Assembly (NCBI RefSeq): GCF_964204645.1
Contig: NC_134028.1
Location: 10,044,001 to 10,108,000 of the forward strand
Length of the DNA stretch: 64,000 bases
From: Tubulanus polymorphus
Taxonomy: Eukaryota > Animalia > Nemertea
Direction of reading: 5' to 3'
A program made the position numbers and the translations under genes. A model generated the notes under the pieces. The model did no database searches. It was not told the DNA's origin and was given only the letters and a program-made list of their open reading frames with translations. Every line of letters begins with the position of its first letter. The first letter of the stretch is position 1. Positions 21,341-56,465 of this stretch are shown in pieces.

Positions 21341-21432
21341 TTTCCCCTTTGATTATTTGTTATTTGTTCTCTCATTCATTTCGTCTCTGACTTAACTTGT
21401 ATTCACCTTTGTTTTAATTTAAGTGCCCCCCT

Positions 21433-21792
21433 AGTTTGTCTTTCTTTTTACTACTGACTTTAAGTTTCATTTATATTTATACTCACTATTGTTGTTTATA
21501 ATTACCCCTTAGTTTGCTTCCCTTTAATCTATTTAAGCGTGTAACTGTTTCTAAGTTAATTTTCCTTTAGTTTGTATCATCTCTGATTACTTGAATTAGT
21601 CTCTTTGTCTCTGGAGTGTATATATATCTCATAATTTCTGTAGTATCTCATTATTCCTGAAGATGACTATTAGGATATAGTCGAAACGTTGAAATAAACT
21701 ACTATCTCGAAGTTTCATTTTCGGAATTTTTATTATCATTGTGGGATTCTCTCCTCATCGCGTCAACACGGATATAGTGTTCTACCAATCGT
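21433..21792 (+). repeat. 3' pseudo-LTR
   Basis: Direct repeat of 18582-18941. Confidence 0.9.
21651..21697 (+). ncRNA. Minimal type I hammerhead ribozyme, second copy
   Basis: CTGAAGA T GACTAT-TAGGAT-ATAGTC GAAA CGTTGAAATAA. Confidence 0.7.
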
Positions 21793-21821
21793 AATAAATT
21801 ATTAATTTTTTCATTATATAA

Positions 21822-23109: not shown

Positions 23110-23125
23110 TTTTTTTATTATATAA

Positions 23126-24590
23126 ATGGATGTAGAAGGTGGAGAAGATATTGGAATAAATAATTTTGGAGAACCTGGCATAACTGATGAACAACAACCT
23201 GATTTTAGTGAAACAAGTTTTAATGACGGTAATGAGCCAGGACATAATAATAATTTAAATATACCTGATTATATTAAAAACGCAGAATCAGAATTAAATC
23301 CCGAAAATTTAGACCCAGATTTAGTAAAACAAGATTTAGATAATTTAAACAAAATACCTAAATTAGAACATTTAATTGAAAATTCTGAACTTAATATAAA
23401 TGATGAAGACGTTGGACCTTTAGCAGATTAAATAAACATTTTTAGATAATGGTAAATGGTATTATCATTTGAAAGGTGATTATTATATTGATATCATGTA
23501 TAAAAATAATAAAAATAAAATATTAACAAAATCAACTTTGAGTAATCTAGATCCAGATAGAATTAAAAGAATTAGTAATAGTAATGTACTAACTGATATT
23601 ATAAAACAAGAATAAACTGATAATGATATAGACATATTTAAACAAAGAATTAATGAATTATTTGAAATAATCAAAAAGAAATCAGAAACAGAAACAACTT
23701 CTGAACAGAATATAACTTCCAAAACTAGTAAACTTAAATCAAATAAAGTTCCAATCGAAAAACTTTTACCGAATGGATTAATTGATGCAACAGATCAACA
23801 ATTAGAAGATTTAAATATATTTTCTGATGAAGCAATTAGAGAAACTATTAGTATAAGAAATGAAGCTGATAAAATTGCACATAATAAAAGTATGAGATAT
23901 TATAATTAGAACTTTAGAAAAAGAATTAACTGATAAAAATAAAGAAATAGAACAATTAAAGTCGGATCTTGATCGTCAAGTAATTGATAAAATGGAATAT
24001 AGGCAAAAAGAATTACGTTTAGAAAAAGAAATTAATAATTTAAAAGATAATTTAGAATTACAAAAAGAAGAAATTAAATCATTATTTAAATCATATGATT
24101 ATAATATTAATAGATTAAAAGTTATTTTCAAAAATTTGTTGATAAAACAAAATTCTGAAATATCATTGAAAGATAGAATAGAATTATTATTTAAATTAGA
24201 AGGAATAACAATTCGTTCAATTCTAACAGCTGTAACTATGTTATTTACAACAATTGGTTTAGCTATATCAAATTAATTAAAATCTACTCCTACTCCAAAT
24301 AAACCGGATAAACCCCCGAATGATAATAATTCTATACAAGATAAAGTTAAAGATGGTTTAAAGAAATTAGCAAAATATTTATGGGAACTATCTAAAAAAT
24401 CTGCTGCAGCATTACCAGGAATTATTGCATCAATTGTTGGTTTTATATTGAAATCTGCAGGAAACATTATTAACTTTGCTGCTGAACATATTATTTTATT
24501 TTTAATTACAGTTGTAAGTGCTATTATTTTTGGGTTAGTAAACATGATATCAAAAAATATCAAGTAAACATGATAAAAAATAAATGATTA
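23126..24590 (+). pseudogene. Coiled-coil/membrane protein (474-aa family), disrupted
   Basis: Homologous to 47454-48878. Confidence 0.8.
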
Positions 24591-24607
24591 ATTTTTTTGT
24601 TAAATAA

Positions 24608-25864
24608 ATGAGTGGGCGTTATATCAATCCTTCTAAGAATCATAGAATATCTAATGCTTTTAAAGCAGAAAGATCACATCATATAATTACTCATAACCCT
24701 TCTAATATTAATCCTGATGAAACTTTATATGCTAGAATTCCTCGATTATCACAAAATACTTTTTATGTTCCAAATAGTATTTATTTATCAGCCGATATAA
24801 AAGTAACCGGTAATAATAATAATTATGTTGTTGATAATGTTGGAAGATATTTGATTAAAAAATTAACTATAAAGATTGGTCCAGAAACAGTTTTCTCATT
24901 AGATGATTATAATTTATTTATGCATTATAAAGATTTATGGTTAACTAAAGAAAATAGAAATAATATGATATTTCAAGGCATCCAATCAGAAAACCAAAAT
25001 AAATTAAGATCTGAAACCAATAATGCGTTAGTAGCTAATGATGTAGATAATTTGATTAAAAAGATTTATGGAAGCAAATATAAAATTCCATTAGCCCTTT
25101 GAATTGATAAATAATAATGCACCTTTATATAAATATGTAATTCAAGAAGATATTATATTTGAGATAACATTTGCTCCTGTAAATGAAATTGTATTATCCA
25201 GCGTTGCTAAAGATATGGGTTATAAATTATCGAATATATGTTTAGAATATAATACAGTAACTAATGAAAATATTGCTAACACAATTCAAACTAAATACAA
25301 TCAATGATTTTCATTATTATATGATTATATTGATAAATTTAAAACTGTAACTATTAATGCAAATGATGAAATAATTAATTAGAATATTAACTTCCCAAGA
25401 AGATCTATTAAAGGTATATTAATATTTTTTACCATTGCAACATATTCTAATGGCGCCATAAAGGTAGATAATTAATGATTAATTATTAATCCTGAAATAA
25501 CAAAAGTAGAAATAACTATCGAAGGAATAGCAAATAAAATATTTTGTCAAGGAATGAGAATGATAGATCAATGGCCAGAAATTAGAAAACATTTTATGAA
25601 TGAAAAAGTAAAATCATCTGAAAATTGTAATATTAATCAAATTGATTATTATATCGGTAATAAATATGCATTATGGTTAGATTTTAGAACAACAGAGGAT
25701 AATTCATTACATGGTTCTGGGAAAAACTACAGAACACTAAAGATGGAATACAATCATTCATGAAAAAGAAAAAAGGAAGCTTAAATTTTAAAATCCACAT
25801 TTATATTATATCTAACGCACAATTAAATATTGTAAATTCACAATTAGATAGTATTCAATATTAG
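24608..25864 (+). pseudogene. Putative major capsid protein, disrupted
   Basis: Homologous to 48898-50148. Confidence 0.7.
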
Positions 25865-25894
25865 AAATATAAAGTTAAAATTAAGGATATATAA

Positions 25895-26385
25895 ATGGGT
25901 GGTAAAAAAACTCCTAATACTAAAGAACAATATTTAAGAAATGTATATTACAACCTTGAGTTGCTTATTCTTTTACCAAAAATATATGGCGTCAAGTAAA
26001 ACAAGATAAATTAGATAAGATAATCCCACAAAATTTAGTTAAATATAAAGATATAAATGAATTTATGTTAGAACAACCAACATATACAACATAAAAAAAT
26101 TGTTAGAAAATATAAAACTCGTAAAACTATGGTAAGTTATGTAGATCAACAGTGGCAAGGAGATTTAATTGATATGAAAAATGTTAAGAAAGATAATGAT
26201 GATTATTGGTGGTTATTGAATATAATTGATATTTTTAGTCGTTATGTATGGAGCTTCCCACTTTATAGAAAAGATGCTGTACAAATATCAAATGTTTTAA
26301 GAAAATTTCTTTCGGATGATAAACTAAAACCAGAAAAAATACAATTTGATGATGGAAAAGAATTTGATAATTCACTTGTTCATGA
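25895..26385 (+). pseudogene. RVE integrase 5' part, truncated at inversion junction
   Basis: DQQWQGDLIDM, IDIFSRY, IQFDDGKEF. Confidence 0.85.
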
Positions 26386-26685
26386 ACAATCATCTATAAT
26401 GAATAATGTATTTGATCCTTTATAAATATCAATTGCTATTTTTATACAATTATCTAAATTTTCTTTTACTGTTTTAGGATCTAATATAATAAATTTATTA
26501 TTTCTAGTAATATTTCTATCATAAGTTTGATTAAATTCATATGTTGGACAAAATAATACTATATTATCAAAATAGTTTTTATAAACAGTTTCTAATAAAT
26601 TTAATATAAAATAAGTTTTTCCACAATTTGTTACGCCAGAAATTAACATATTATGAGGCTCAAATATAAATAATTTCTTATTCAT
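26380..26685 (-). pseudogene. Packaging ATPase, N-terminal half
   Basis: GVTNCGKT (Walker A), FIIDDC (Walker B), then truncated. Confidence 0.85.
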
Positions 26686-27813
26686 TTATATATTTTTAAT
26701 TTTACTTGATAATATCCATTCATTAAATTTATCTGGCCATCCAACCCATTTTACTAAAGAATATTTTTTTCTTTTAACAGTTTTTGTTTTTAATACTTTT
26801 TCAATTTTTTATTCTTGTTCTAGATTTTCAGTAGTTAAACTTAATTCTTCTTCGTAAAAGTAGCCATCAACTTCTTCACCATCTAAATCTTCTAATTTAT
26901 AGACATATGGTTTTGTTGTTATTACCTTTTTTATTTTATATATTTCCCTAGTAAAATTTCGATCGTATCCTTTGTCAAATATCTTTTTATACTTAGAAAT
27001 TCTAACATTTTGACCAACTTTAAATTTAGGTTCACCAAATTCATCTACAAGAAATGCTCCATATAAATTATTCCAAACAATTTCAGCATTTTCAGGTTTT
27101 CTAGCATCAATAGGTTTCATTCCAATAGAAGAATGATAAGAATTATTATATCCTTCTATCAATTTTGGTAAAACATCAATCCATTTAGTAGTATTATTTG
27201 CTGTAAAATATTTCCACATTCTTGTTCTTAATGTTCTATTAAATCGTTCAACAACTGCTGCTTTTTTATTTGATTTTGTTGAAAAATATTTAATATTATG
27301 ATTATCTAAGAGTTCATGAACAAGTGAATTATCAAATTCTTTTCCATCATCAAATTGTATTTTTTCTGGTTTTAGTTTATCATCCGAAAGAAATTTTCTT
27401 AAAACATTTGATGTTTGTACAGCATCTTTTCTATAAAGTGCGAAACTCCATACGTAACGACTAAAATTATCAATTATATTCAATATCCACCAATAATCAT
27501 CATTATCTTTCTTAACATTTTTCATATCAATTAAATCTCCTTGCCACTGTTGATCTACATAACTTACCATAGTTTTACGAGTTTTATATTTTCTAACAAT
27601 TTTTTTATGTGTTGTGTATGTTGGTTGTTCTAACATAAATTCATTTATATCTTTATATTTAACTAAATTTTGTGGGATTATCTTATCTAATTTATCTTGT
27701 TTTACTTGACGCCATATATTTTTGTTAGCAGGATAAGCAACCGAACTATCAGGGTTGTAATATAAATTTCTTAAATATTGTTCTTTAGTATTAGGAGTTT
27801 TTTTACCACCCAT
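26686..27813 (-). pseudogene. RVE integrase; premature stop removes the chromodomain
   Basis: 334-aa ORF with D-D-E core; chromodomain coding sequence continues at 26686-26808. Confidence 0.88.
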
Positions 27814-27843
27814 TTATATATCCTTAATTTTAACTTTATATTT

Positions 27844-29087
27844 CTAATATTGAATACTATCTAATTGTGAATTTACAATATTTAATTGTGCGTCAGATAT
27901 AATATAAAAGTGCATTTTGAAATTTTTGTCTCCTCTTTTCTTTACCATGAATAATTGTATTCCATCTTTAGTGTTCTGTAGTTTTTTCCCAGAACCATGT
28001 AGTGAATTATCCTCTGTTGTTCTAAAATCTAACCATAGTGCGTATTTATTGCCGGTATAATAATCAATTTGATTAATATTACAATTTTCAAATGATTTCA
28101 CTTCTTCATATATAAAATGTTTTCTAATTTCTGGCCATTGATCTATCATTCTCATTCCTTGACAAAATATTCTATTTGCTATTCCTTCGATAGTTATTTC
28201 TACTTTTGTTATTTCAGGATTATAATAATTATCAACATTTATTGCGCCATTAGAATATGTTGCAATGGTAAAAAATATATACCTTTAATAGATCTTCTTG
28301 GGAAGTTAATATTCTCATTAATTATTTCATCATTTGCATTAATAGTTACAGTTTTAAATTTATCAATATAATCATATAATAATGAAAATCCTTGATTGTA
28401 TTGGGTTTAAATTGTGCTAGCAATATTTTCATTAGTTACTGTATTTTATTCTAAACATATATTCGATAATTTATATCCCATATCTTTAACAACGCTAGAT
28501 AATACAATTTCATTTACAGGAGCAAATGTTATCTCAAATATAATATCTTCTTGAATTACATATCTATATAAAGGTGCATTATTATTCATCAATTCAAAGT
28601 CTAATGGAATTTTATATTTGCTTCCATAAATCTTTTTAATCAAATTATCTACATCATTAGCTACTATTGCATTATTGGTTTCAGATCTTAATTTATTTTG
28701 GTTTTCTGATTGGATGCCTTGAAATATCATATCATTTCTATTTTCTTTAGTTAACCATAAATCTTCATAATGCATAAATAAATTATAATCATCTAATGAG
28801 AAAACTGTTTCTGGACCAATCTTTATAGTTAATTTTTTAATCAAATATCTCCCAACATTATCGACAACATAATTATTATCATGACCAGTTACTTTTATAT
28901 CGGCTGATAAATAAATACTATTTGGAACATAAAAAGTATTTTGTGTTAATCTAGGAATTCTAACATATAAAGTTTCATCGGGATTAATATTTGAAGGATT
29001 ATGAGTAATTATATGATGTGATCTTTCTGCTTTAATAGCATTAGATATTCTAGAATTCTTAGAAGGACTTATATAACTCCCACTCAT
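27844..29087 (-). pseudogene. Putative major capsid protein, disrupted
   Basis: Homologous to 48898-50148. Confidence 0.7.
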
Positions 29088-29107
29088 TTATTTAGCAAAA
29101 AAATTAA

Positions 29108-30575
29108 TTACTTATTTTTTATTATTTTTTCTTGATATCTTTTTGATATCATATTCACTAACCCAAAAATAATAGCACTTACAACTGTAATTAAAAATAA
29201 AATAATATGTTCAGCAGCGAAGTTAAGAATATTACCTGCAGATTTCAATATAAAACCAACAATTGATGCAATAAATCCGGGTAAAGCTGCAGCAGATTTT
29301 TTAGATAGTTCCCATAAATATTTTGCTAATTTTTTTAAACCATCTTTAACTTTATCTTGTATAGAATTATTACCTGGGGGTTTATCTGGTTTATTTGGAG
29401 TAGAAGTAGATTTTAAAGCATTTGATATTGCTAAACCAATTGTTGTAAATAACATAGTTAGAGCTGTTAGAATTGAAAGAATTGTTATTCCTTCTAATTT
29501 AAATGATAACTTTATTCTATCTTTTGATGATATTTCAGAATTTGGTTTTATCAACAAATCTTTAAAAATAACTTTTAATCTATTAATATTATAATCATAT
29601 GATTTTAATAACAATTTAATTTCTTCTTTTTGTAATTCTATGTTATATTCTAAATCATCTTTTTCTTTTTCTAAACGTAATTCTTTTTGCCTATATTCTA
29701 TTTCATCAATTACTTGATGATCTAAATCAGACTTTAATTGTTCTATTTCTTTATTTTTATCAGTTAATTCTTTTTCTAAAGTTCTAATTTTAAAATCTCT
29801 TATACTTTTATCATGCGCAATTTTATCAGATGCAAGTCTTATACTTTTAATTTCTCTAATTGCTTCAACAGAAAATATATTACTTAAATCTTCTAATTGT
29901 TGATCTGTTGCATCAATTAATCCATTCGGTAAAAGTTTTTCAATTGTCAATTGGAACTTTATTTGATTTAAGTTTACTAGTTTTGGAAGTTATATTCTGT
30001 TCAGAAGTTGTTTCTGTTTCTGATTTCTTTTTGATTATTTCAAATAATTCATTAATTCTTTGTTTAAATACGTCTATATCATTAACAGTTAATTCTTGTT
30101 CTATAACATCAGTTATTACATTACTATTACTAATTCTTTTAATTCTACCTGGTTCTAATTTTTCTAAAGTTGATTTTGCTAATATTTTGTTTTCATTTTT
30201 AAAAGTGATATCAATATAATAATCATCTTTCAAATGATAATACCATTTACCATTATCTAAAAAGTTTAATTTATCTGCTAAAGGTCCAACGTCTTCATCA
30301 TTTATGTTAAATTTAGAATTTTCAATTATACGTTCTAATTTAGGTATTTTGTTTAAATTATCTAAATCTTGTTTTACTAAATCTGGGTCTAAATTTTCAG
30401 GATTTAATTGTAATTCTGCATTTTTAATATAATAAGTCATATTTAAATTATTATTATATTCTGGCTCATTACCGTCATTAAAACTTGTTTCACTAAAATC
30501 AGGTTGTTGTTCATCAGTTATGCCAGGTTCATCTAAAGGATCCATTCCAATATCTTCTCCACCTTCTACATCCAT
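29108..30575 (-). pseudogene. 474-aa-family coiled-coil/membrane protein, one frameshift
   Basis: Two overlapping ORFs (211 aa and 280 aa) homologous to 47454-48878. Confidence 0.8.
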
Positions 30576-30591
30576 TTATATAATAAAAAAA

Positions 30592-30857
30592 TTAAAATTT
30601 AAAATATAATATTCCTCTTATAACAATTCCTATACAAGTTAAAGCTAATTTAGTATTTTCATGGGATTTATTATCATTATCAGTTTTAATTATATCATGT
30701 TGAATATTATCAGTTTTAATATTTTCTGTAGTATTGTAATCTTTTATTTTGGAATCATTATCCAATTTAATATTCTTAGTTTTAGTTTCTGTTGATTGAA
30801 TGTGTTTTCTATTTTTTTCACCTTCCATTAATTTTGGAGCAGTAATAATCTTTTACA
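30592..30857 (-). pseudogene. C-terminal fragment of the 433-aa family
   Basis: HENTKLALTCIGIVI.GILYFKF. Confidence 0.75.
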
Positions 30858-31530
30858 TTTATATCTTTATATTTAACTAAATTTTGTGGGATTATCTTAT
30901 CTAATTTATCTTGTTTTACTTGACGCCATATATTTTTGTTAGAAGGATAAGCAACCGAACTATCAGGGTTGTAATATAAATTTCTTAAATATTGTTCTTT
31001 AGTATTAGGAGTTTTTTTACCACCCATTTATATATCCTTAATTTTAACTTTATATTTCTAATATTGAATACTATCTAATTATGAATTTACAATATTTAAT
31101 TGTGCGTCAGATATAATATAAAAGTGCATTTTGAAATTTTTGTCTCCTCTTTTCTTTACCATGAATAATTGTATTCCATCTTAAGTGTTCTGTAGTTTTT
31201 TCCCAGAACCATGTAATGAATTATCCTCTGTTGTTCTAAAATCTAACCATAGTGCGTATTTATTGCCGGTATAATAATCAATTTGATTAATATTACAATT
31301 TTCAAATGATTTCACTTCTTCATATATAAAATGTTTTCCAATTTCTGGCCATTGATCTATCATTCTCATTCCTTGACAAAATATTTTATTTGCTATTCCT
31401 TCGATAGTTATTTCTACTTTTGTTATTTCAGGATAATAATAGTTATCAACCTTTATTGCGCCATTAGAATATGTTGCAATGGTAAAAAATATTAATATAC
31501 CTTTAATAGATCTTCTTGGGAAGTTAATAT

Positions 31531-32630
31531 TTAGGGTTTTCTGTTATTTCACAGAAAACCCTATTGATATCCGCGTGATTATTATTACTATTATTTTCTT
31601 CCACACTATTTTTACCAAAAGAACATAGGCTTTGTTACCTTACCGCTGTTTCATATACAATCCATATAATATCGTTCAGCTCACTGAGATCTACAAATAG
31701 CCCGCGTGTTTTTTCACGAATCATCGTTACAAAAGCGCTGTCGGGCCGTAAACATCGAAAATTTAGCCCCATTCAATGGGGCGACATGTTTTTCGAGTCG
31801 TCATCCCGAAATCAACCCGCAGGCCGACTGTCACTTCGATTATCAATTCAAGTATAATTGAACTAATTTTTTGCCGCAGACTTCACATTCAGTCGCGGTC
31901 TTCAAACAGTGATTTTAACAATAGCCCATTTTCCTCATCAAATCATATTACCGATACACTAGAAATTTACTACTTTAGATTTTAAAAGCACTGTCGAGCC
32001 GAAAACATCGACGAATCGACGTGTGTTACTACATCGTCGTTCCGGGGATCAGCTGCGAGTTTCTCCTCATCATGAGAATCAAATCGAGTACAAATTAATT
32101 TATAACTACCAGTGATTTGGCTGCAGGCGTCAAGCAGTTAGTTTAGCAATACCTATTTTTCTTTACCAAATTAACCGTGTATTTACTAAGATAAATCATA
32201 AGTGTACCGGGGAGTCGTAGGCCAAAACTAAACACGCCGAAGAGATATAGCGGAGAAAAGGTGTTATGTCGACGAGGTATCAAAATAAAGAAATATATTT
32301 ATCCGGCCGCGGGCTTCAACCTCTATATCAATACTATCAATACTCTATATTTCCTACTGTACATACCGATCATTGTCAAATCCACAAGGTATTTACTAAA
32401 TACAAGTATACAACACACTCCTATCCGTATGCTGGACTCACACTTGACATTCGGAGTAAGCGTTCGCTGTGGAGGAAAGGAGATCGTTCGCTGTGTCGCT
32501 TGAAGTGTTTATCGAGTTTTACGCGACCTTAAGGCTTTAGTATGGTGGCTGATACGATAAAAAAACACGAATATGCAAATGAGGGCGACATTACGACAAA
32601 ACGACAAAACTAAAATAACGCGAGAAAACA
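31531..32630 (+). mobile_element. Non-coding host interspersed repeat, possibly Helentron-derived non-autonomous element
   Basis: Starts with hairpin TAGGGTTTTCTG..CAGAAAACCCTA and an (ATT)n tract; ~950 bp recur at ~36345-37290; distal part recurs at ~54775-54960. Confidence 0.55.
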
Positions 32631-32635
32631 ATGAT

Positions 32636-34360
32636 TTTGATTTTGTCGCCCGCGACAATTCAATATTTTGGTTTTATCGCCCGCGACAATTCATTATTTT
32701 GGTTTTATCACTTGCGACAATTCATTATTTTGGTTTTGTTGCCCGCGAAAATTCAATATTTTGGTTTTAACGCCCACGACAATTAACTACTTTGGTTTTA
32801 CCGCCAGCGACAATTCAGTATTTTGGTTTTATCACTTGCGACAATTCATTATTTTGGTTTTGTTGCCCGCGAAAATTCAAAATTTTTTTGTTTTATCGCC
32901 CACGACAATTCACTACTTTGGTTTTATCGCCAGCGACAATTCATTATTTTGGTTTTATCGCCCGCGACAATTCTTCTTTATGGTTTTGTCGCACGCAACA
33001 ATTCATTATTTTGGTTTTATATTTTGTTTTTGTCGCCCGCGACAATTCAATATTTTGGTTTTATCGCCTGCGAAAATTCAATATTTTGGTTTTATCGCCC
33101 GAGACAATTCATTATTTTGGTTTTATCGCCGGCGACAATTCATTATTACGGTTTTATCGCCCGCGACAATTCATTATTTTGGTTTTGTCGCCCGCGACAA
33201 TTCACCATTTTGGTTTTGTAACCCGCGACAATTCATTATTTTGGTTTTATCGCCCGCGACAATTCATTATTTTGGTTTTATCGCCCGCGACAATTCATTA
33301 TTTTGGTTTTGTCGCCCCGACAATTCTTTTTTGGTTTTGTTGCCCGCGACAAATCATTAGTTTGGTTTTGTCGCCCGCGACAATTCAATATTTTGGTTTT
33401 GTCGCCCGCAACAATTCAATATTTTGGTTTTATCGCCCGCGACAATTCATTACTTTGGTTTTATCTCCAGCGACAATTCATTATTTTGGTTTTGTCGCCC
33501 GCGACAATTCTTCTTTTTGGTTTTGTCGCCCGCGACAATTCATTAGTTTGGTTTTGTCGCCCGCGACAATTCAATATTTTGGTTTTGTTGCCCGCAACAA
33601 TTCAATATTTTGGTTTTATCGACCGCGACAATTCATTACTTTGGTTTTATCTCCAGCGACAATTCATTATTTTGGTTTTGTCGCCCGCGACAATTCTTCT
33701 TTTTGGTTTTGTCGCCCGCGACAATTCATTATTTTGGTTTTATATTTTGTTTTAGTCGCCCGCGACAATTTTTTTTTTGGTTTTGTCGCCCGCGACAATT
33801 CAATATTTTGGTTTTGTCGCTTGCGACAATTCATTATTTTGGTTTAATCGCCCGTGACAATTCAATATTTTGGTTTTATCGCCTGGACAATTCACCATTT
33901 TGGTTTTGTCGCCCGCGACAATTTATTATTTTGGTTTTGTCGCCCCAACAATTCTTTTTTTGGTTTTGTCGCCCGCGACAATTCAATGTTTTGGTTTTAT
34001 CGCCCATGACAATTCATTACTTTGGTTTTATCTCCAGTGACAATTCATTATTTTGGTTTTGTCACCCGCGACAATTCTTCTTTTGGTTTTGACGCCCGCG
34101 AAAATTCATTATTTTGGTTTTATATTTTGTTTTTGTCGCCCGCGACAATCTTTTTTTTTGGTTTTGTCGCCCGCGACAATTCATTATTTTGGTTTTATCG
34201 CCCGCGACAATTCAATATTTTGGTTTTATCGCCCGCGATAATTCATTATTTTGGTTTGATTGCTTGCGACAATTCATTATTTTGGTTTTGTCGCACGAGA
34301 CAATTCATTATTTTGGTTTTATCGCCCGCGACAATTCCTTATTTTGGTTTTGTCACCCGA
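32636..34360. repeat. 31-bp minisatellite array (~55 units)
   Basis: Unit ACAATTCATTATTTTGGTTTTATCGCCCGCG. Confidence 0.95.
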
Positions 34361-34689
34361 AGAAAATTTTGAAGACGCTTTGATCAATTACCTTGATCTT
34401 TCGTTTATATTTGAATCTACCAAAGGCCCATCAGCATAAGAAAATTGGGTCGATCTGACTCAAGATGGCCGTCCTATGACCTTTTTAGTGCCCAAAAATG
34501 TCAATTTTGGCCAGAATTCTAGGTCCTGTAGCTTCCTACTGGTTTGCCATTTCTCATTGCAATTGCTGATGGGTATTCTTTAGAGAGGGATGTTTTATAC
34601 CTGGGACAGGTATTTTGATCAGCCAATTATGACGCAATTTGCGGCCATCTTGGTGTCATCAGTACTCATTCGTAGGTGGGAAAAAGTTT

Positions 34690-35445
34690 TTCCACATTAA
34701 ATTGATACCTAAGCATATTGTGTTACTATATTCAATTGGAAAGTTGTAGCCCATAACGTGTTCTATGATTTTGGTGAGTTTCAAGGTCATGGGTTTTTGT
34801 ATGTGGCCATCAGGGGGCGTTGAATAATACAATAACTTAGCATCGCTATATTATATTTGTACCAAGGCATATTTTGTTACCACAACCAATTGCAAAGTTA
34901 TATCTCATGACATCGTCTATGATTGTGGTGAGTTTTTAAGAACATTAGTTATTCCATATAGTCACCAGGGGGCGTTGAATAGTAGAAAAGCTTAGTTTTT
35001 CCTTATTAGATTGGTACCTAGGCATAGTTTGTTACCATGATCCATTGCAAAGTTGTAGTTCATGACATCGTCTATGATTGTGGTGAGTTTTTAAGGACAT
35101 TAGTTATTCCATATAGTCACCAGGGGGCGCTGAATAGTAGAATGGCTTAGTATTTCCTTATTAGATTGGTGCCTAGGCATATTTTGTTACTATGATCAAT
35201 TGCAAAGTTGTATTTCATGACATGTACTACGATTGTGGTGAGTTTTAAGGTCATTGGGTTTTGCATATGGTCACCAGGGGGCGTTGAATAGTAGAATAAC
35301 TTAGTATTTTCATATTAAATTGGTAACGAGGCATATTTTGTTATCACAATCAATTACAAAATCAAAGCTTCTCACATGTTCTATGATTGTGGTGGGTTTC
35401 AATGTCATTGGTTTTTGTATATGGTCACTAGAGGGCGTTATGTAT
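34690..35445. repeat. ~155-bp tandem repeat (~5 units), each with a CTCF-like motif
   Basis: CAGGGGGCG core at 34811, 34966, 35121, 35275; TAGAGGGCG at 35429. Confidence 0.88.
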
Positions 35446-35512
35446 TGAAATTGTTAGATTGTTGAGCATTTGAAACCACTTCCCAAGTGAGCATGGTGTC
35501 CCTGGACCCCTA

Positions 35513-35960
35513 TTTTGGTTTTGTCACCCGCGACAATTCAATATTTTGTTTTGCCGTCTGCAACAATTCATTATTTGGTTTTATCGCCCGCTACAATTCA
35601 ATATTTTGGTTTTAACGCCCGCGTCAATTCATATTGCGGTTTTATCGCCCGCGAAAATTCATTATTGCGGTTTTATCGCCCGCGACAATTCATTATTTTG
35701 GTTTTGTCGCACGCAACAATTCAATATTTTGTTTTGCCGTCTGCGACAATTCATTGTTTGGTTTTATCGCCCGCGACAATTCAATATTTTGGTTTTAACG
35801 CCCGCGTCAATTCATTATTGCGGTTTTATCGCCCGCGAAAATTCATTATTTTGGTTTTATCGCCCGCGACAATTCATTATTTTTGTTTTGTCGCCCGTGA
35901 CAAATCAATATTTTGGTTTTGTCACCCGCGACAATTCATAATTTTGGTTTTGTCGCCCGT
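35513..35960. repeat. 31-bp minisatellite array (~14 units)
   Basis: Same unit as 32636-34360. Confidence 0.92.
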
Positions 35961-37349: not shown

Positions 37350-37429
37350 AGTAATTGGAAAAGTGGGCTTTCATACCAGAGGGCGAGACACCACTCATCA
37401 CCAAGTAATTTGTTTTCCTTATAAATGGG
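37350..37429 (+). repeat. Left TIR of copy C (80 bp)
   Basis: AGTAATTGGAAAAGTGGGCTTTCATACCAGAGGGCGAGACACC...TATAAATGGG. Confidence 0.95.
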
Positions 37430-40400
37430 GGAGAATGAACACCAACCAGAAAACAATAATGTCAATAAAAATCAATATTATTGTCAATATTGTAAAAAAT
37501 ACATCGATACATCTCATAAAACACGACATGAAAAATCTGCAAATCATATAAAAAATGTAATAGATTTTGAAACTCCAGAAAATTCCAATGAAAGAAAAGA
37601 ACGATTAGAAAATATGAATGTGGATGAAATAAAATGTGAAGTTTGTAATGAATTTATAGTAAAAAGGAATTATAATAGACATCTCGAATCACAAAACATT
37701 ATAAAAATTTAAATAAAAATGTTTTAGGATTAGAATATTTTGATAATAAACCTCAACAAGTAAAAGAATCAACTTCAAAAACTAAATCCATTTCAAATAA
37801 ACCTTACACGGAAAATGTTAGAAATTATATTGATTCACTAGAAATAAAAGATACAATTGAAATTTTAGAAACATTACATAGTAAAATTGGTCCTGCAGCT
37901 ATTATATTTAGATTTTTTAAAGGTACAACAATAGAAGATTATAGTAAATTTAATGAAATAATAGAAAAAATACTTGATTTGATAACAGATGTTGAATATC
38001 CAAAAATTAGTATCTCTGGGAAAGTAAGTTTTATAAAGTCAGAAGAAAAAATGAATTATAATATTCAAACACTCTCTGAAGAAATAATTTCAAAAACACA
38101 AATAAAAGAGAAGTTAGAAAAAATATTTAATGAATTTAAACGTCATATTGAAGAAAGATATTTTGAGGGTTCTGGCTTAAAATTGAATGAAATTATATAT
38201 TTAGATTTAAATGTTTATAATACAAAAAGAAATAAAACATCAAAAAGTAATAAAATGTTTAAAAATGATTCAAACTTTACAACAGAAAAGGATATTAAAG
38301 CATCATCTTATATTAAATTACCATTTACAACAAAAGCAGTAATAAATATTCAAAATGAAGATAATAAATGTTTTCTATGGTCAATTATTAGTTGTTTACA
38401 CCAAACAGAAGATATGACGCATAGTTTTAGAATAACAAATTACCGGAAATATGAAACATTATATAAAATTGATCAATATCCAGTAACTATAAAAATGATT
38501 CCTAAAATAGAAAAAGTTAATAATTTAAAAATAAATGTATTCGAATTAATGCAATTACCAAAGACAAAAGGTGAAAATATTAAAGATTATACATTGGAAG
38601 CTTTATATTTAACAGAATATTATGATGATGAAAATGCTATAGATTTGTTATATTACAAAAAAGATGAAAATGAACATTATATGTGGTTAAAACAAATTGA
38701 TTTATTCTTTAGAACAGAAAGTGATCATCATCATAAAATTTATCTATGTAGAAAATGTTTATCTAAATTTATGACTGGGAATACATTACTAAAACATAAA
38801 GAATTATGTGATAATAAAGATTTTTGTAAATTAATAATGCCAACAGAAAAAGATTATAAATTGAAATTTACTAATCATAAATTTAAAAATATTGTTCCAT
38901 TTGTAATTTATGGGGATTTTGAATCGTTGAATAAAGAATTAACTGATCAAGATAGAAAAGAAATATATAACAAAAAGCAATTATTAAAATCAATGGATAA
39001 AGGAAGTGAATTAAATGAAGATATAATTCAAGACCCAACAATTATAAATACAATTAAAAAAGTTCATCAAAGAGCTGCTGCTTATGGAATTTATATAAAA
39101 TCAAATTATCCCGAATTATATGAAAGTCAATATATTTCTTTTAGAGGTGAAAATGTAGTTAATGATTTTTGTGATAAAATGATTGAATTAGAAAGTGATT
39201 CTGTAAAATTATTAAACAAAAATAAAAGAATAGTTATGACAAAAGAAGATGAAATTGATTTTAATTATGCAACATATTGTTGTTATTGTGAAAAACGTTT
39301 TTATTCATTTGATAAAAGAGTTAGAGATCATGATCATTTAAATTCAAAATATCGTGGAGCTGCTCATGAAGATTGCAATTTACAAGCTAAAAAAGTAAAT
39401 TTCGTACCAATATTATTTCATAATTTATCAGGATATGATACCCATCTATTTATAAAACAATTATCGGGAAAATTGGATGCAATTAATCAAGAAATAGAAG
39501 AATATAATGCTATGAATGAAGCAAATGTAAGAAAATATGATTTTAAACTATCAGCTAAAACATCTGAAAATTATATTTCATTTCAATTTGGTTGCATTAG
39601 ATTTTTAGATTCTTATAGATTTCTAGCAAATTCATTAGATATTTTATCAAAAAGTTTAGTTGATAATGATTTTGTTATAACTCGATATTATTATCCAAAT
39701 GACCAAGATTTTAAATTATTGAGATATAAAGGCGCAATACCTTACTCATTTTATAAAACGCATGATGATTTCAAAGAAACAAAATTATTAAAAGATCAAT
39801 TTTATGATAAATTAAAAGAGGAGTATGTGAAAGATGAAGTGTTTAATAGAACATAAATATTTTAAATATTTGGAACCATTTTAAGATGAAAAATCATGGT
39901 GAATTAGTTGATTTATATTTAAAATCAGATGTTATGATATTGGCTGATATATTTGAAAAATTTAGAGAAGTTAATTTGAATCATTTTAATGTTGATCCTT
40001 GTTATTGCTACTCTAGTCCTGGTTTAACCTGGCAATGTGGTTTAAAATATACAAATGTAGAATTAGATTTATTAAAAGAACCAGATATGGTTTTATTATT
40101 TGAAAAATCAATTAGAGGTGGAATTAGTGGTGTTATGGGAGATAGGTATTTTAAAGCAAATGATGAATATAAATTATTATATATTGACGCCAATAATTTA
40201 TATGGTTGGGCAATGATGCAACCTCAACCACATAAAAATTTTATATTAACAGACGTTGAAAATGGTGATAAAACTGATTGGGAAAGCGCAATTGCGAGTT
40301 TAAAAGATGAAGCACCAATTGGTTATTTCTTTGTAGTTGATTTAGAATATCCTGAAAATATAAAGTTTAAAACAAGAAACTTACCTTATTGCCCAAAACA

Positions 40401-42501
40401 TTTAACTGTAGATGATAGTTATTTAAGTGAATACCAGAAGAAAATAAAACCGAAAGATCATGTTTTTACAGAAAAATTAATACTTACTCAAAATAATAAA
40501 TACAATTATATTGTTCATTATAGAATGTTAAAATTTTATCTAAAACAAGGAATGAAATTAAAGAAAGTACATAGATATATTGAATTTAATCAATCGAAGT
40601 GGTTAGAAAAATATATAGATTTCAATACTCAACAGAGAACCATATCAAAAACAGATTTTGAAAAAGATTTTTTCAAATTGATGAACAATAGTTTTTATGG
40701 AAAAACATGTGAAAATATTAGAAATAGAAATGATATTGAATTAGTAAATAATTCTGAAAGATTAAGACATTTACAATCAAGTCCTAGACATTTAGGAAAT
40801 AAAAGGTTTGAAGATTATTTAACCACGGTAAAATTAAAAAGAACGTCCATGAAATTTAATAAACCAATATTTATAGGTTCAACTGTTTTAGAAATATCAA
40901 AATTATTAATGTATGATTTTTATTATAATGTTTTGCAACCACTTTTTGGGGAAAAGCATATTGAAATATTATATTTTGATTCTGTAACAGCTGACACCCC
41001 AATATTATTAAAATGTAATAATAAAATATTGGTAAGAAGAATTTCAGAAATAATTCCAAAACAAAATGAACTTTATATTTCATATGGTGAAAAAGAATTA
41101 ATACAAATAAATGGTTTAATAGATGTTTGGACAAGAAATGGATGGAAAAAATTAAAGAATATTATTAGACATAAAACAAATAAGAAAATCTATAGAGTTA
41201 GAACTAAATTAGGATTTGTAGATGTTACAGAAGATCATAGTTTAATTAAACGAAATGGTGATGAAATAAAACCAACTTATATAAAAATTGGAGATGAATT
41301 ATTACATAAAAGATTTTTCCAAAGAATGAATCATATGTCATTTGATGAAATAATTGATAATATTTATAATATAGAACCCGAAACATTAGAACAAAAAGAA
41401 TATTTTATCAAAGGATTTTTCATGGGCGATGGTTCAGCAGGTGTGTATAATTATGTTTGGGGTAATAAATATTGTTGGTATTTATGCAATCAAGACTTAA
41501 AATTATTAGAAAGAATTAAGAAATTCTGTAAAGAAGTTTATCCAAATAAAACATTTAGAATCATGGATGTTATGAAATCAACAGCAGTTTATAGAATACT
41601 TGTAAATAATCCTAAAGATTTTGCTATGAAATATAATGATGAATTCTATATTCATGCAATAGTGAAAAGTAATACTTCAACTAAAGAAAGAATAGTACCA
41701 GATTATGTATTAAATACAAAAAATAATTTAAGAAAGTGGTTCTTCATTGGATTCTATGCCGCAGATGGTTCAAAAAGTTTCCAAAACCGCAAAACAATAT
41801 CCTTTGCTCAAAAAGGAAAAGTTGCTATATCAGGATTGAATATATTATGTAGTTCATTAGGATTTAATATGAATATAGAATTAATTAAATCTAAACCAAA
41901 TTGTTTTAATTTAAGGCATGTAGAAAATGAGTTAACAGAAGAAGTTAAAGATTTATTTGAAATATATAACCCAACTGACTATGTTTATGATTTATCAACA
42001 GATGATGGAACATTCAATTCTGGGTTCCCATTAATCCAAAAAAATACCGACAGTTACATACTAAAAATCAAGACAAATGATATAACAAAAGACTTAAAAA
42101 CATTAAAACATTATTTTGATTTCAGCAATTACCCCAAAGATCATGAACTATTTAGCAATGATAATAAAAAGATTCCTGGTAAGTTTAAAGATGAATTAGG
42201 AGGTGATGAAATGATTGAATTTGTTGGGATAAGAAGTAAAATGTATAGTTACAGAACAAAAGATCATGAAGCTAAAAAGTTAAAAGGAATAACAAAACAT
42301 GTGGTTGATAAACATATAGAATTTCAAGATTATATAAAGTGTTTATATAACTCAATTGTAATGAAACACAAAATGAATTGTTTAAGATCAGAAGATCACG
42401 AGATGTACATTAATGAAGTTGAAAAAACTAGTTTAAATCCATTTGATGATAAAAGGCATATTTCAGATGATGGTATAAAAACATTACCTTATGGCTATTA
42501 A
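37425..42501 (+). pseudogene. polB: pPolB: N-terminal Zn fingers, OTU-like region, exonuclease with EndoVII-like HNH insert, polymerase with intein; two frameshifts
   Basis: C2H2-like fingers; DNKCFLWSI...EHYMW; YGDFES; VRDHDH...GAAHEDCN; FHNLSGYD; YIDANNLYG; KLMNNSFYGK; YFD/TDS; shifts at ~37700 and ~39855. Confidence 0.94.
40981..42045 (+). mobile_element. Intein (355 aa) with intact LAGLIDADG homing endonuclease, inserted in pPolB motif C
   Basis: Block A SVTADTPIL; block B VTEDHSL; LAGLIDADG motifs FIKGFFMGDGS and FFIGFYAADGS; block F YVYDLST; block G IQKN followed by Thr; removal restores YFDTDS. Confidence 0.95.
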
Positions 42502-48897: not shown

Positions 48898-50148
48898 ATG
48901 AGTGGGAGTTATATAAGTCCTTCTAAGATTTCTAGAATATCTAATGCTATTAAAGCAGAAAGATCACATCATATAATTACTCATAACCCTTCAAATATTA
49001 ATCCCAATGAAACTTTATACGTTAGAATCCCTCGATTAACACAAAATACTTTTTATGTTCCAAATAGTATTTATTTATCAGCCGATATAAAAGTAACTGG
49101 CCATGATAACAATTATGTTGTTGATAATGTTGGGAGATATTTGATTAAAAAATTAATTATAAAGATTGGTCCAGAAACAGTTTTCTCATTAGATGATTAT
49201 AATTTATTTATGCATTATAAAGATTTATGGTTAACTAAAGAAAATAGAAATAATATGATATTCCAAGGCATTCAATCGGTAAACCAAAATAAATTAAGCC
49301 AATAATAATGAAGCCAATAATGCAGTAGTAGCTAATGACGTAGATAATTTGATTAAAAAGATTTATGGAAGCAAATATAAAATTCCGTTAGATTTTGAAT
49401 TGATAAATAATAATGCACCTTTATATAAATACGCAATTCAAGAAGATATTATATTTGAGATAACATTTGCTCCTGTAAATGAAATTGTATTATCTAGCGT
49501 TGTTAAAGATATGGGTTATAAATTATCGAATATATGTTTAGAATATAATACAGTAACTAATGAAATTATTGCTAATACAATTCAAACTCAATACAATCAA
49601 GGATTTTCATTATTATATGATTATATTGATAAATTTAAAACTGTAACTATTAATGCAAATGATGAAATAATTAATGAGAATATTAACTTCCCAAGAAGAT
49701 CTATTAAAGGTATATATTTTTTACCATTGCAACATATTCTAATGGCGCAATAAATGTTGACAATTATTATAATCCTGAAATATCAAAAGTAGAAATAACT
49801 ATTGAAGGTATAGCAAATAAAATATTTTGCCAAGGAATGAGAATGATTGATCAATGGCCAGAAATTAGAAAACATTTTATGAATGAAAAAGTAAAATCAT
49901 TTGAAAATTGTAATATTAATCAAATTGATTATTATACCGGCAATAAATATGCATTATGGTTAGATTTTAGAACAACAGAGGATAATTCATTACATGGTTC
50001 TGGGAAAAAACTACAGAACACTAAAGATGGAATACAATTATTCATGAAAAAGAAAAAAGGAAGCTTAAATTTCAAAATGCACATTTATATTATATCTGAC
50101 GCGCAATTAAATATTGTAAATTCACAATTAGATAGTATTCAATATTAG
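48898..50148 (+). pseudogene. Putative major capsid protein (double jelly-roll), two frameshifts
   Basis: ~415 aa, beta-rich; ITHNPSNI, NVGRYLIKKL, NICLEY, PRRSIKGI, YALWLDFRT..DNSLHGSG; adjacent to integrase and ATPase. Confidence 0.7.
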
Positions 50149-50178: not shown

Positions 50179-51306
50179 ATGGGTGGTAAAAAAACTCATA
50201 ATACTAAAGAACAATATTTAAGAAATTTATATTACAACCCTGAGAGTTCGGTTGCTTATTCTTCTACTAAAAATATATGGCGTAAAGTAAAACAAGATAA
50301 ATTAGATAAGATAATCCCACAAAATTTAGTTAAATATAAAGATATAAATGAATTTATGTTAGAACAACCAACGTATACAACACATAAAAAAATTGTTAGA
50401 AAATATAAAACTCGTAAAACTATGGTAAGTTATGTAGATCAACAGTGGCAAGGAGATTTAATTGATATGAAAAATCTTAAAAAAGATAATAATGATTATT
50501 GGTGGATATTGAATATAATTGATATTTTTAGTCGTTATGTATGGAGCTTCCCACTTTATAGAAAAGATGCTGCACAAACATCACATGTTTTAAGAAAATT
50601 TCTTTCAGGTGGTAAACTAAAACCAGAAAAAATTCAATTTGATGATGGAAAAGAATTTGATAATTCATCTATTCATGGTCTCTTAGATTTTCATAATATT
50701 AAATATTTTTTGACAAAATCGGATAAAAAAGCAGCAGTTGTTGAACGATTTAATAGAACATTAAGAACAAGAATGTGGAAATATTTTACAGCAAATAATA
50801 CTTTTAAATGGATTGATGTTTTACCAAAATTTATAGAAGGATATAATAATTCTTATCATTCTTCTATTGGAATGAAACCTATTGATGCTAGAAAACCTGA
50901 AAATGCTGAAATTGTTTGGAATAATTTATATGGAGCATTTCTTGTAGATGATTTTGGTGAACCTAAATTTAAAGTTGGTCAAAATGTTAGAATTTCTAAG
51001 TATAAAAAGATATTTGATAAAGGATGCGATCGAAATTTTACTAGAGAAATATATAAAATAATAAAGGTAATAACAACTAAACCATATGTCTATAAATTAG
51101 AAGATTTAGATGGTGAAGAAGTTGATGGATATTTTTATGAAGAAGAATTAAGTTTAACTACTGAAAATCTAGAACAAGAATATAAAATTGAAAAAGTATT
51201 AAAAACAAAAACTGTTAAAAGAAAAAAATATTCTTTAGTAAAATGGGTTGGATGGCCAGATAAATTTAATGAATGGATATTATCAAGTAAAATTAAAAAT
51301 ATATAA
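50179..51306 (+). CDS. RVE integrase with C-terminal chromodomain (intact)
   Basis: WQGDLIDM (D), IQFDDGKEF (D), VVERFNRTL (E); YKIEKVL...LVKWVGWPDKFNEWI. Confidence 0.94.
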   Translation: MGGKKTHNTKEQYLRNLYYNPESSVAYSSTKNIWRKVKQDKLDKIIPQNLVKYKDINEFMLEQPTYTTHKKIVRKYKTRKTMVSYVDQQWQGDLIDMKNLKKDNNDYWWILNIIDIFSRYVWSFPLYRKDAAQTSHVLRKFLSGGKLKPEKIQFDDGKEFDNSSIHGLLDFHNIKYFLTKSDKKAAVVERFNRTLRTRMWKYFTANNTFKWIDVLPKFIEGYNNSYHSSIGMKPIDARKPENAEIVWNNLYGAFLVDDFGEPKFKVGQNVRISKYKKIFDKGCDRNFTREIYKIIKVITTKPYVYKLEDLDGEEVDGYFYEEELSLTTENLEQEYKIEKVLKTKTVKRKKYSLVKWVGWPDKFNEWILSSKIKNI

Positions 51307-51915
51307 ATGAATAAGGAATTATTTATATTTGAGCCTCATAATATGTTAATTTCTGGTGTAACAAATTGTGGAAAAACTTATTTTATATTAAATTTATTAG
51401 AAACTGTTTATGAAAACTATTTTGATAATATAGTATTATTTTGTCCAACATATGAATTTAATCAAACTTATAATAGAAATATTACTAGAAATAATAAATT
51501 TATTATATTAGATCCTAAAACAGTAAAAGAAAATTTAGATAATTGTATAAAAATAGCAATTGATATTTATAAAGGATCAAATACATTATTCATTATAGAT
51601 GATTGTGCTAATCTACATGATTCAAAAGTTAGAGAAAGTGAGTTATGTTATTTAGCTTTTTCTGGCAGACATTTTGGGATAACAACTTGGGTTTTAAATC
51701 AAAAATATAATTCAATTGTTAAAGACTTTAGAGAAAACATTAGATTTCTAGTTTTATTCTACAATAAAGATAGAAAATCGATGAAAAATGCACTTGAGGA
51801 AAATGATATTATTCCACATGATTTACATAATGAATATATGGATAAGTTGAAAAATATTAAAAGATCAAAATTACTATTTAGATTACAACACCCATTTAAA
51901 TATGAATTTATTTAA
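51307..51915 (+). CDS. A32/FtsK-HerA-type DNA packaging ATPase (intact)
   Basis: GVTNCGKT, FIIDDC, GRHFGITTWVLNQ, FREN. Confidence 0.92.
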   Translation: MNKELFIFEPHNMLISGVTNCGKTYFILNLLETVYENYFDNIVLFCPTYEFNQTYNRNITRNNKFIILDPKTVKENLDNCIKIAIDIYKGSNTLFIIDDCANLHDSKVRESELCYLAFSGRHFGITTWVLNQKYNSIVKDFRENIRFLVLFYNKDRKSMKNALEENDIIPHDLHNEYMDKLKNIKRSKLLFRLQHPFKYEFI

Positions 51916-54617: not shown

Positions 54618-54959
54618 TGTTGCATTTATTAACGGACTCATTGGATTGAACTTCAAAACAAAATTTACGATATTTAGGTGGGTTGTTATTCAATAGGCCT
54701 ACGACCAATCTGTCCGGATGTAAGGCCTACGCATATACATAGGCCTACATAGGCTAGTAGCCTCTACTAGGTTAAGCGTTCGCTGTGGGGGAAAGGAGAT
54801 CGTTCGCTGTGTCGCTTGAAGTGTTTATCGAGTTTTACGCGACCTTAAGGCTTTATAGTATGGTGGCTGATAAGGGCCATGCGTAAAAAAACACGTATAT
54901 GCAAATGAGGGCGACATTATGACAAAACGACAAAACTAAAATAACGCGACAAAACAATA

Positions 54960-55670
54960 ATTTTAGTTTTGTCGCCCGCGACAATTCATTATTTTGGTTT
55001 TATCGCCCGCGACAATTCATTATTTTGGTTTTATCGCCCGCGACAATTCATTATTTTGGTGTTGTCGCACGCGACAATTCATTATTTTGGTTTTATCGCC
55101 CGCGACAATTTTTTTTTTTTGTCGCGGTTTTATCGCCTGTGACAATTCAATATTTTGGTTTTATCGCCAGCGACAATTCATTATTTTGGTTTTATCGCCC
55201 GCAACAATTCATTAGTTTGGTTTTGTCGCCCGCGACAATTCAATATTTTGGTTTTGTCGCCCGCGACAATTCATTATTTTGGTTTTATCGCCCGCGACAA
55301 TTCATTATTTTGGTTTTATCGCCCGCGACAGTTCATTATTTTGGTTTTGTCGCACGCGACAATTCATTATTTTGGTTTTATCACCCGCGACAATTTTTTT
55401 TTTGCCGCGGTTTTATCGCCTGCGACACTTCAATATTTTGGTTTTATCGCCTGCGACAATTCAATATTTTGGTTTTATCACCAGCGACAATTCATTATTT
55501 TGGTTTTATTGCCCGCGACAATTCATTTTTTTGGTTTTGTCGCCCGCGACAATTCAATATTTTGGTTTTATCGCCAGCGACAATTGATTATTTTGGTTTT
55601 ATCGCCCGCGACAAATGATTATTTTGGTTTTATCGCCCGCGACAATTAATTTTTTTGGTTTTGTCGCCCA
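54960..55670. repeat. 31-bp minisatellite array (~23 units)
   Basis: Same unit and same upstream flank as the 32636 array. Confidence 0.93.
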
Positions 55671-55759: not shown

Positions 55760-56175
55760 TACGGGAGCGATAAAGGGCCTCGAGTTGTCGCATTCAAACT
55801 CGACAAGTCGCCATATTTATGTCGATATATCGCGATATATCGCGTCAAGTCCACATGAATATGTCTACATATCGTGACGTTTTCACAACAAATTTCGCTT
55901 TTTTGCTCATTTTCCACGGGACAAGCCGTCATTTGAAGACATGTCTGAATGTAAGATGAAGACGCTAGTAATATGACGACTGAGTTTCAAGTCGTCATGA
56001 ATATGTCGATTTGTCACGAGGAAAATGGTCGAGAAAACGAAATATGTCGTCAAAACGTCACGATATATCGACATATTCACGTCGACTTGACGCGATATAT
56101 CGCGGTATGTCGACAAAAATATGGCGACTTGTCGAGTTGGAACGCGACATCTCGAGGCCCCTTATCGCTTCCGTA
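55760..56175. mobile_element. Fold-back MITE (416 bp) with 7-bp TSD
   Basis: TACGG...CCGTA termini, ~155-bp imperfect inverted arms, GATATAG at 55753-55759 and 56176-56182. Confidence 0.88.
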
Positions 56176-56278: not shown

Positions 56279-56465
56279 AGTAATAGGGGTAATAGGCTTT
56301 CAGGCCAAAGGTCGAAGGGTCGAGCTCGCAAAAAATGAAAATAACAATAATTTCCAGTTCAATTAGTCGCGCACACTCCTAATTCAACTGGAAATTATTG
56401 TTATTTTCATTTTTACTCACTCGCTCCTTCAACCTTTAGCCTGAAAGCCTATTACTCCTATTACT
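56279..56465. repeat. 187-bp terminal palindrome of copy D
   Basis: AGTAATAGGGGTAATAGGCTTTCAGGC...TTTCCAGTT / AACTGGAAA...GCCTGAAAGCCTATTACTCCTATTACT. Confidence 0.9.

Follow-up and report, generated by a model that had tools for sequence, protein, structure and literature searches.

Can a complete homing intein reside in the nuclear genome of an animal and, if so, in what kind of gene and by what route did it arrive? This question is raised by a 355-aa insert in a DNA polymerase gene within a stretch of 64,000 nucleotides (64 kb, the whole of which we analyzed and refer to as the window). The initial annotation held that inteins are essentially unknown from animal nuclear genes, and the accessible text of two reviews agrees, describing metazoan genomes as being without inteins (PMC5784728 and PMC8529194); inteins of animal-infecting Iridoviridae are already listed in the former. 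In the explanation that we prefer and consider probable, a full-length homing intein occupies motif C, the catalytic motif, of a Polinton polymerase, and the genome that contains it is likely that of an animal; the intein is predicted to excise itself from the polymerase and likely spreads by cutting empty copies of its target.

Residues, profiles, and predicted fold of the insert

The insert (positions 40981 to 42045, plus strand) is free of stop codons and lies in frame between the YFD and TDS of motif C of a Polinton protein-primed PolB (pPolB), as seen in the translation of the ORF at 39886 to 42501. It starts with Ser1, ends with Lys354-Asn355, and is followed by Thr+1 of the C-extein (42046 to 42048), which is the T of the motif C residues D-T-D. 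The translation, profile searches, and predicted fold delimit three parts, all on the plus strand. The N-terminal Hint (i.e., splicing) part (aa 1 to 115; 40981 to 41325) contains Ser1 and the block B residues T83-E-D-H86 (41227 to 41238). The two-motif LAGLIDADG homing endonuclease (approximately aa 116 to 313; 41326 to 41919) carries D150 in motif 1 (41404 to 41433) and D262 in motif 2 (41740 to 41769). The C-terminal Hint part (aa 314 to 355; 41920 to 42045) includes the block F residue D337, G343, the penultimate K354, and N355. The coordinates in the initial annotation were correct, and the features that it had named (i.e., Ser1, block B TEDH, two LAGLIDADG motifs, block F Asp, a Lys-Asn end, and Thr+1) are all present.

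In profile searches, TIGR01445 (intein_Nterm) scored 33.1 bits (cut-off, 24.5) and Pfam LAGLIDADG_3 (PF14528) was above its cut-off (E = 2.9e-7). Intein_splicing (PF14890) gave an E value of 9.9e-6, yet its 25.9 bits were below the cut-off of 35.8. An AlphaFold model based on a 50-row alignment had a pLDDT of 94, and its best matches among solved structures (Foldseek) were the TliVMA, PhoVMA, PI-PkoII, PI-PfuI, and PI-SceI inteins; after the endonuclease-bearing inteins, the next matches were I-DmoI and mini-inteins. The Hint domain implied by the initial annotation is thus borne out both by the TIGR01445 score and by the solved inteins among the fold matches.

We compared the insert with 189 related inteins (215 extracted by pattern, minus 9 near-duplicates and 17 outside 290 to 430 aa). 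Residues S1, T83, H86, D337, and N355 occupy columns conserved in 185 to 189 of the 189 sequences, with at least 187 for each of S1, H86, D337, and N355, counts that are inflated at the intein ends because the extraction pattern demands canonical ends. Both LAGLIDADG catalytic acids, which correspond to D150 and D262 here, are retained in 166 of the relatives. The penultimate His of inteins is usual, not universal. In the insert, G343 and K354 stand where two C-terminal histidines are usual, and the penultimate His is therefore absent; since the same pair is found in 77 of the 189 relatives (His-His in 82), it represents a family trait, not decay.

Its sequence and predicted fold identify the insert as a mimivirus-type, class 1 pol-c intein, and splicing is predicted. 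An acyl shift at Ser1, aided by T83 and H86, would be followed by transfer to Thr+1, and cyclization of Asn355, aided by D337, would then rejoin YFD and TDS. Since the intein interrupts the catalytic motif, imprecise removal would not be tolerated. We rejected a free-standing homing endonuclease fused to the pPolB, since the splice junctions and the two Hint halves are present; a Hedgehog-type Hint domain, since the insert is internal, with its Asn and Thr+1; and an assembly artefact, in view of the two intein copies within the window and the reads of another study.

The Polinton array and its host organism

The window is an array of AT-rich Polinton copies (21 to 25% G+C) bounded by satellites and relics of 38 to 40% G+C. 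It contains three pPolB copies, namely, E1 (with a broken intein), E2 (with the intact intein described above), and E3 (with no intein). The E2 polymerase gene (37425 to 42501, plus strand) also carries an Endonuclease_7/HNH-like insert (Pfam Endonuclease_7, E = 0.03) and is split into three by frame breaks, one near 37700 and the other near 39855 to 39870. At the break near 39855, 192 of 246 reads in X6 (raw reads from another study under the same species label; 1,934 Mb read) differ from the window sequence, and the break is therefore particular to a minority of copies. E2 further encodes, on the plus strand, a frameshifted major capsid protein (48898 to 50148), an rve-chromo integrase (50179 to 51306), and an A32 packaging ATPase (51307 to 51915). 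Among the Polinton hallmark profiles, we detected PF03175 (on copy E3 and relatives), PF00665, and PF04665; the capsid profile PF16903 was weak and below its cut-off. The term "intact" in the initial annotation consequently applies to the intein, and neither to its host pPolB gene nor to the E2 capsid gene.

The second intein-bearing copy, E1 (12817 to 14955, plus strand), has a frameshifted intein with a deletion that ends in Phe-Asn before Thr+1. As in E2, the polymerase gene that carries this intein is broken. The intein end (14944 to 14955), with Phe-Asn instead of Lys-Asn, also occurs on a contig of dataset X2, and a penultimate Phe is found in 4 of the 189 relatives. Most of the E1 intein is present twice in a 1,143-bp tandem duplication (12508 to 13650 and 13650 to 14791; 99.9% identical), which is either a very recent event or an assembly artefact. 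E3 presents an empty site, YFD|TES (60195 to 60260, plus strand; junction at 60227/60228); it is approximately 77% identical to E2 at the DNA level and lacks exactly the intein segment. At 60228 to 60236, E3 encodes TES, in contrast to the TDS of P0305, P0307, and P0308, which are closely related to it (i.e., the catalytic Asp is changed in E3).

The Polinton ends are self-complementary hairpins of approximately 190 bp. One hairpin-like terminus lies at the border with low-copy flanking DNA (5085 to 5280), and a related one lies at 56279 to 56465. No paired terminal inverted repeats were found for E2 in the window, where the copies are nested and rearranged and the termini at 5085 and 56279 are single. 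A separate 173-bp inverted repeat (55760 to 56175) is located shortly before E3, and the segment at 22833 to 31531 consists of inverted, partly duplicated Polinton segments (93% identical) that face E1; the nesting and rearrangement of the array resemble those of a cluster rich in transposons. Satellites with 31-bp and 155-bp units separate Polinton copies (32634 to 35959 and 54945 to 55669), and the flank contains a broken relic of a YqaJ-like recombinase (4482 to 4922; PF09588, E = 1.4e-6).

The start codon lies within TAAATG in 26 of the 51 ORFs of at least 100 aa (6675 to 63432), compared with 150 of the 2,423 ATGs in the window (6.2%); the other 25 ORFs mostly begin within broken genes, and multiple copies of a gene do not count as independent cases. 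The TAAATG starts are often preceded by a T run. TAAAT is the initiator of vaccinia intermediate/late genes according to the portion of PMC6211774 that is accessible. By analogy, these starts would fit transcription of the Polintons by a cytoplasmic large DNA virus, which would have provided a shared compartment for the first jump of the intein; a helper virus was not observed.

The host of the array is likely Tubulanus polymorphus (a ribbon worm, phylum Nemertea) or a close relative, and hence an animal, because a Penelope-like retroelement inside E1 (18582 to 21795, plus strand; 363-bp direct repeats, 98% identical) shows 91 to 97% identity over 363 of 373 aa to a T. polymorphus RefSeq protein from a 31.9-Mb record. 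The other named Penelope matches among the 120 listed are also from animals (crayfish and damselfly; 37 to 43%). About half of the sampled words from the intein region were found in four datasets (one study, one species label). In X6, the depth was 124 to 254 over eight intein bins and 286 to 472 over the upstream polymerase (85% likeness), versus 0.9 to 10 (median, approximately 3.7) over 14 low-copy flank bins (95% likeness). These values suggest roughly 30 to 70 intein copies per genome, given unequal thresholds (85% versus 95%) and a flank taken as single-copy; the estimate was drawn from the X6 reads, leaving out the summed contig depths of X1, X2, and X4. Eight X6 reads join both exteins without the intein, and empty sites are thus present besides filled ones. 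One contig from X1, which may be the source sample, spans the flank/element terminus with no mismatch and with flank-like depth. X5 (a marine metagenome; share, 0.08) yielded short pieces only and was left out of the evidence. From the occurrence in samples S1, S2, and S4, we infer that the intein is present in the germline. On the Penelope marker, the independent reads, and the flank-bridging contig, the animal context assumed in the initial annotation is likely.

Relatives, descent, and likely homing of the intein

A BLAST search with the E2 intein against longer proteins yielded 244 matches, and those with the top scores were same-site inteins in other pPolBs (identity of 61% for P0004; 48% for P0005; 46% for P0006, P0007, and P0008; 40% for P0010 and P0011). 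At least 11 other database pPolB clusters (90% identity) carry this intein (P0004 to P0008, P0010, P0011, P0086, P0324, P0389, and the fragment P0162), and full-length, uninterrupted intein-bearing pPolBs are found among them (P0004, P0005, P0010, and P0011). Ranked next were RNA-primed PolBs with pol-c inteins (up to 42%), followed by inteins of topoisomerase II. Among viral contigs, giant-virus MAGs matched best (41 to 42%), and the named fold matches were PolBs of a phycodnavirus, a pandoravirus, a marseillevirus, and a megavirus. An intein scan of viral_contigs returned 37 loci, 4 of which were checked and proved to be RNA-primed PolBs. The C-terminal junction pattern was found at 4 viral and 11 metagenome loci, 13 of these 15 being RNA-primed PolBs, 1 unassigned, and 1 a pPolB (L049), whose intein has two in-frame stops. 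The phage collection gave only 2 weak matches to the intein (26 to 27%).

Close intein relatives were also observed in P0013, P0016, P0017, and P0170, PolBs that are phage-like by eye, and the intein family may have entered large phages too. Several large-virus-like PolBs and topoisomerase II proteins (P0009, P0012, and P0158 to P0168) match the query in at least two stretches, and P0009 and P0012 carry inteins of this family in tandem at one site. P0306 is a Polinton-type pPolB labeled Sulfurimonas sp. in UniRef, and it is probably eukaryotic DNA in a bacterial bin.

In an IQ-TREE phylogeny of 47 intein rows, rooted on topoisomerase II inteins, all 10 pPolB inteins formed one clade (100/100) nested among the inteins of RNA-primed PolBs; this tree singled out no sister group of the clade. 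The 8 pPolB inteins in the 189-row tree again formed one clade. As judged from these sequences, the entry of the intein into Polintons is old and not a one-off jump. The initial annotation had proposed that a giant-virus-type intein, akin to NCLDV pol-c inteins, jumped into a pPolB. The nesting supports this origin, and outside Polintons the nearest relatives indeed occupy the pol-c site of RNA-primed PolBs, with contigs and named PolBs of giant viruses ranking first among them. The closest relatives overall, however, are pPolB inteins (40 to 61% identity), which points to an old Polinton-resident lineage instead of a fresh jump.

The intein is patchily distributed. It or its start occurs in 5 of the best 120 (of 3,860) pPolB relatives, with the query P0004 counted, and the site is empty in the other 115. 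We built a tree of 57 rows from the N-extein only, with 45 of 117 new relatives (the top 10 and 35 random ones), including P0324 and excluding P0007 for its long branch. The 10 intein-bearing rows require 9 changes on this tree, a number as low as that in 227 of 500 shuffles, and a single clade of intein-bearing polymerases was rejected (AU test, P = 1e-9). In six HNH-type relatives, the intein and polymerase identities run in parallel (61/59, 48/49, 46/43, 46/44, 40/45, and 40/46%), and the intein and extein trees broadly agree; the patchiness could therefore largely reflect loss, not gain.

Signs of mobility were found within clusters and between polymerase types. The P0005 cluster has 136 members on contigs of up to 1 Mb, and the 15 listed comprise 7 filled, 6 empty, and 2 uninformative alleles. 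When 6 filled and 4 empty alleles were compared, identity was 60% over the 10 aa to either side of the insertion site and 85 to 100% farther away, and the upstream flank of the filled alleles is that of P0389, which belongs to another lineage. This pattern is co-conversion-like, as homing would be expected to leave, and resistant empty alleles could contribute to it. The P0008 cluster has 121 members, and the 15 listed comprise 5 filled, 1 empty, and 9 uninformative alleles, with flanks 99 to 100% identical between filled and empty ones. For P0141 and P0144, the flanks with and without the intein are 99 to 100% identical, which exact loss fits as well as gain. P0007 has a VSR-like motif (by eye) and polymerase flanks that are unalignable to those of the E2 pPolB, yet its intein nests within the pPolB intein clade (94/88).

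A single pairwise comparison (E1 versus E2) gave dN/dS values of 0.25 for the intein, 0.20 for the nuclease, 0.19 for the C-terminal Hint part, and 0.17 to 0.19 for the flanking polymerase; the value for the N-terminal Hint part was 0.65, on 15 changes. The purifying selection on the nuclease and the retention of both catalytic acids point to continued homing, as do the co-conversion-like tract and the apparent jump into a VSR-type pPolB when taken together with them.

The preferred explanation can be stated as a cycle and a history. The excised LAGLIDADG nuclease would cut the empty motif C site of an intein-less Polinton copy, and repair off a filled copy would transfer the intein along with a few flanking codons. 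The lineage would go back to a single old transfer out of the corresponding site in an RNA-primed PolB, the donor most likely being a large DNA virus in one cell with a replicating Polinton. The DNA around the intein site matches RNA-primed PolB sites at 10 to 12 of 18 bases, and since no single sister group is apparent either, this first jump cannot be modeled as ordinary homing. The intein would then have co-descended for long with the HNH-type pPolB lineage, been lost repeatedly, re-invaded neighboring families, and, at least once, made a long jump to a pPolB of the VSR type. The intein would have reached animal chromosomes as cargo of an integrating Polinton and not by invading a host gene.

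The same data bear on four other explanations. The intein could be an old passenger that entered once, was inherited vertically with the polymerase, was lost many times, and still splices but homes no longer. The agreement between intein and polymerase identities in 6 of 7 comparisons, the broad congruence of the two trees, and the near-identical flanks of P0141 and P0144 are all compatible with this scenario, which we nevertheless judge to be unlikely. It does not account for the local flank replacement in the P0005 cluster, the intein inside the unrelated P0007 polymerase, or the selection on a nuclease with both catalytic acids, and it demands many exact losses to leave the intein in only 5 of the 120 listed relatives. 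Another proposal is that the insert is dead, does not splice for want of the block F and penultimate histidines, and persists only in decaying proviral copies, as the replacements G343 and K354 and the two broken host genes in the window might suggest. This proposal is highly improbable considering that the same replacements occur in the 77 relatives mentioned above, mostly single PolB genes in which splicing should be obligatory, that uninterrupted pPolBs with the intein exist, and that the dN/dS values indicate purifying selection.

Two further possibilities concern the source of the DNA. The array could derive from a co-sequenced symbiont, parasite, or food organism and not from animal chromosomes, given that the window contains no host gene, that Polintons are common in protists, and that five small datasets with the same label lacked all sampled words (which is no proof of absence). 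The ribbon-worm-like Penelope element within E1, the independent X6 reads that cover both the low-copy flank and the intein, and the X1 contig across the flank/element border make such a source very unlikely. Recent and direct transfer of the intein from a giant virus to the Polinton of this animal would agree with the giant-virus MAGs and PolBs among the matches; it is largely refuted by the intein tree, in which the E2 intein shares one well-supported clade with the closer pPolB inteins (up to 61% identity; 73% for one fragment), and we regard it as extremely improbable.

Implications and comparison with known systems

If the preferred explanation is correct, a complete intein with predicted homing activity resides in a likely animal nuclear genome, although its carrier is an endogenous virus-like element rather than a gene of the host. 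Protein-primed polymerases would join the list of intein hosts, and the intein would be a traceable marker linking Polintons to large DNA viruses. Many filled and empty alleles of one gene within one genome would also constitute a rare natural test bed, in which the steps of the homing cycle (i.e., invasion, co-conversion, resistance, and loss) are measurable. The question of why animals lack inteins becomes testable as well, since the barrier would be a missing carrier and target, not the animal cell. A bolder version, which we entertain only tentatively and would not bet on, is that a Polinton-specific intein lineage, derived from a large DNA virus parasitized by virophage Polintons, is actively homing among dozens of copies in the nuclei of several hosts. 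If true, this would be a natural protein-splicing gene drive inside animal nuclei.

In the literature searched, which left most subscription journals and Repbase outside its scope, neither a Polinton nor an animal nuclear genome was reported to carry a Hint-bearing intein. Word searches likewise returned no intein in a Polinton from Starrett 2021 (PMC8502044), a coral polintovirus paper (PMC11131425), PMC12220804, PMC13768754, or PMC5718144. The components are known. What appears undescribed is their combination, in which an intein lineage specific to Polintons shows signs of homing and is present in tens of copies in the genome of a likely animal.

Several known systems resemble parts of it. 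The solved inteins TliVMA (7qsu), PhoVMA (7qst), PI-PkoII (2cw7), and PI-SceI (1vde) match the E2 intein in fold over its whole length (E = 1e-16 to 4e-10), but they share only 11 to 18% identity with it and reside in other host proteins. HNH or VSR nuclease domains inserted into Polinton pPolBs are described in the accessible text of Jeong et al. 2023 (bioRxiv 2023.08.22.554363) and Krupovic et al. 2024 (PMC11071308), the latter speculating that such inserts stem from intein invasions. The E2 pPolB shares this feature in its Endonuclease_7-like insert. No Hint domain or splice junctions are described for those inserts in the accessible text, and the words "intein," "Hint," and "LAGLIDADG" are absent from that of Jeong et al.; the motif C insert of E2, in contrast, is a complete intein with both Hint and LAGLIDADG parts.

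Gallot-Lavallee et al. 2023 (PMC10710043) described nuclear scaffolds of Klebsormidium, Tetrabaena, and Hondaea that encode intein-containing, viral-like DNA polymerases. There, too, the polymerase gene of an endogenous virus brought an intein into a nuclear genome; the organisms concerned are algae and a protist, whereas the present carrier is a multicopy Polinton in a likely animal. The accessible main text of that paper does not contain the words "polinton," "maverick," "metazoa," or "animal," and its SI Appendix may list more inteins of endogenous viruses.

The closest parallel outside pPolBs is with the pol-c inteins of RNA-primed PolBs, which are 28 to 42% identical to the E2 intein at the same site. 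According to the accessible text of PMC549080, the mimivirus PolB intein interrupts YGD|TDS (YFD|TDS here), has Ser1, a terminal Asn, Thr+1, and a LAGLIDADG nuclease, and is 351 aa long versus 355 aa, in agreement with the site and similar length given in the initial annotation. Compared with these giant-virus inteins, the present one differs in that its host is the protein-primed PolB of an integrating Polinton, that it belongs to a clade separate from theirs, made up of pPolB inteins, and that a single genome contains tens of filled and empty alleles.
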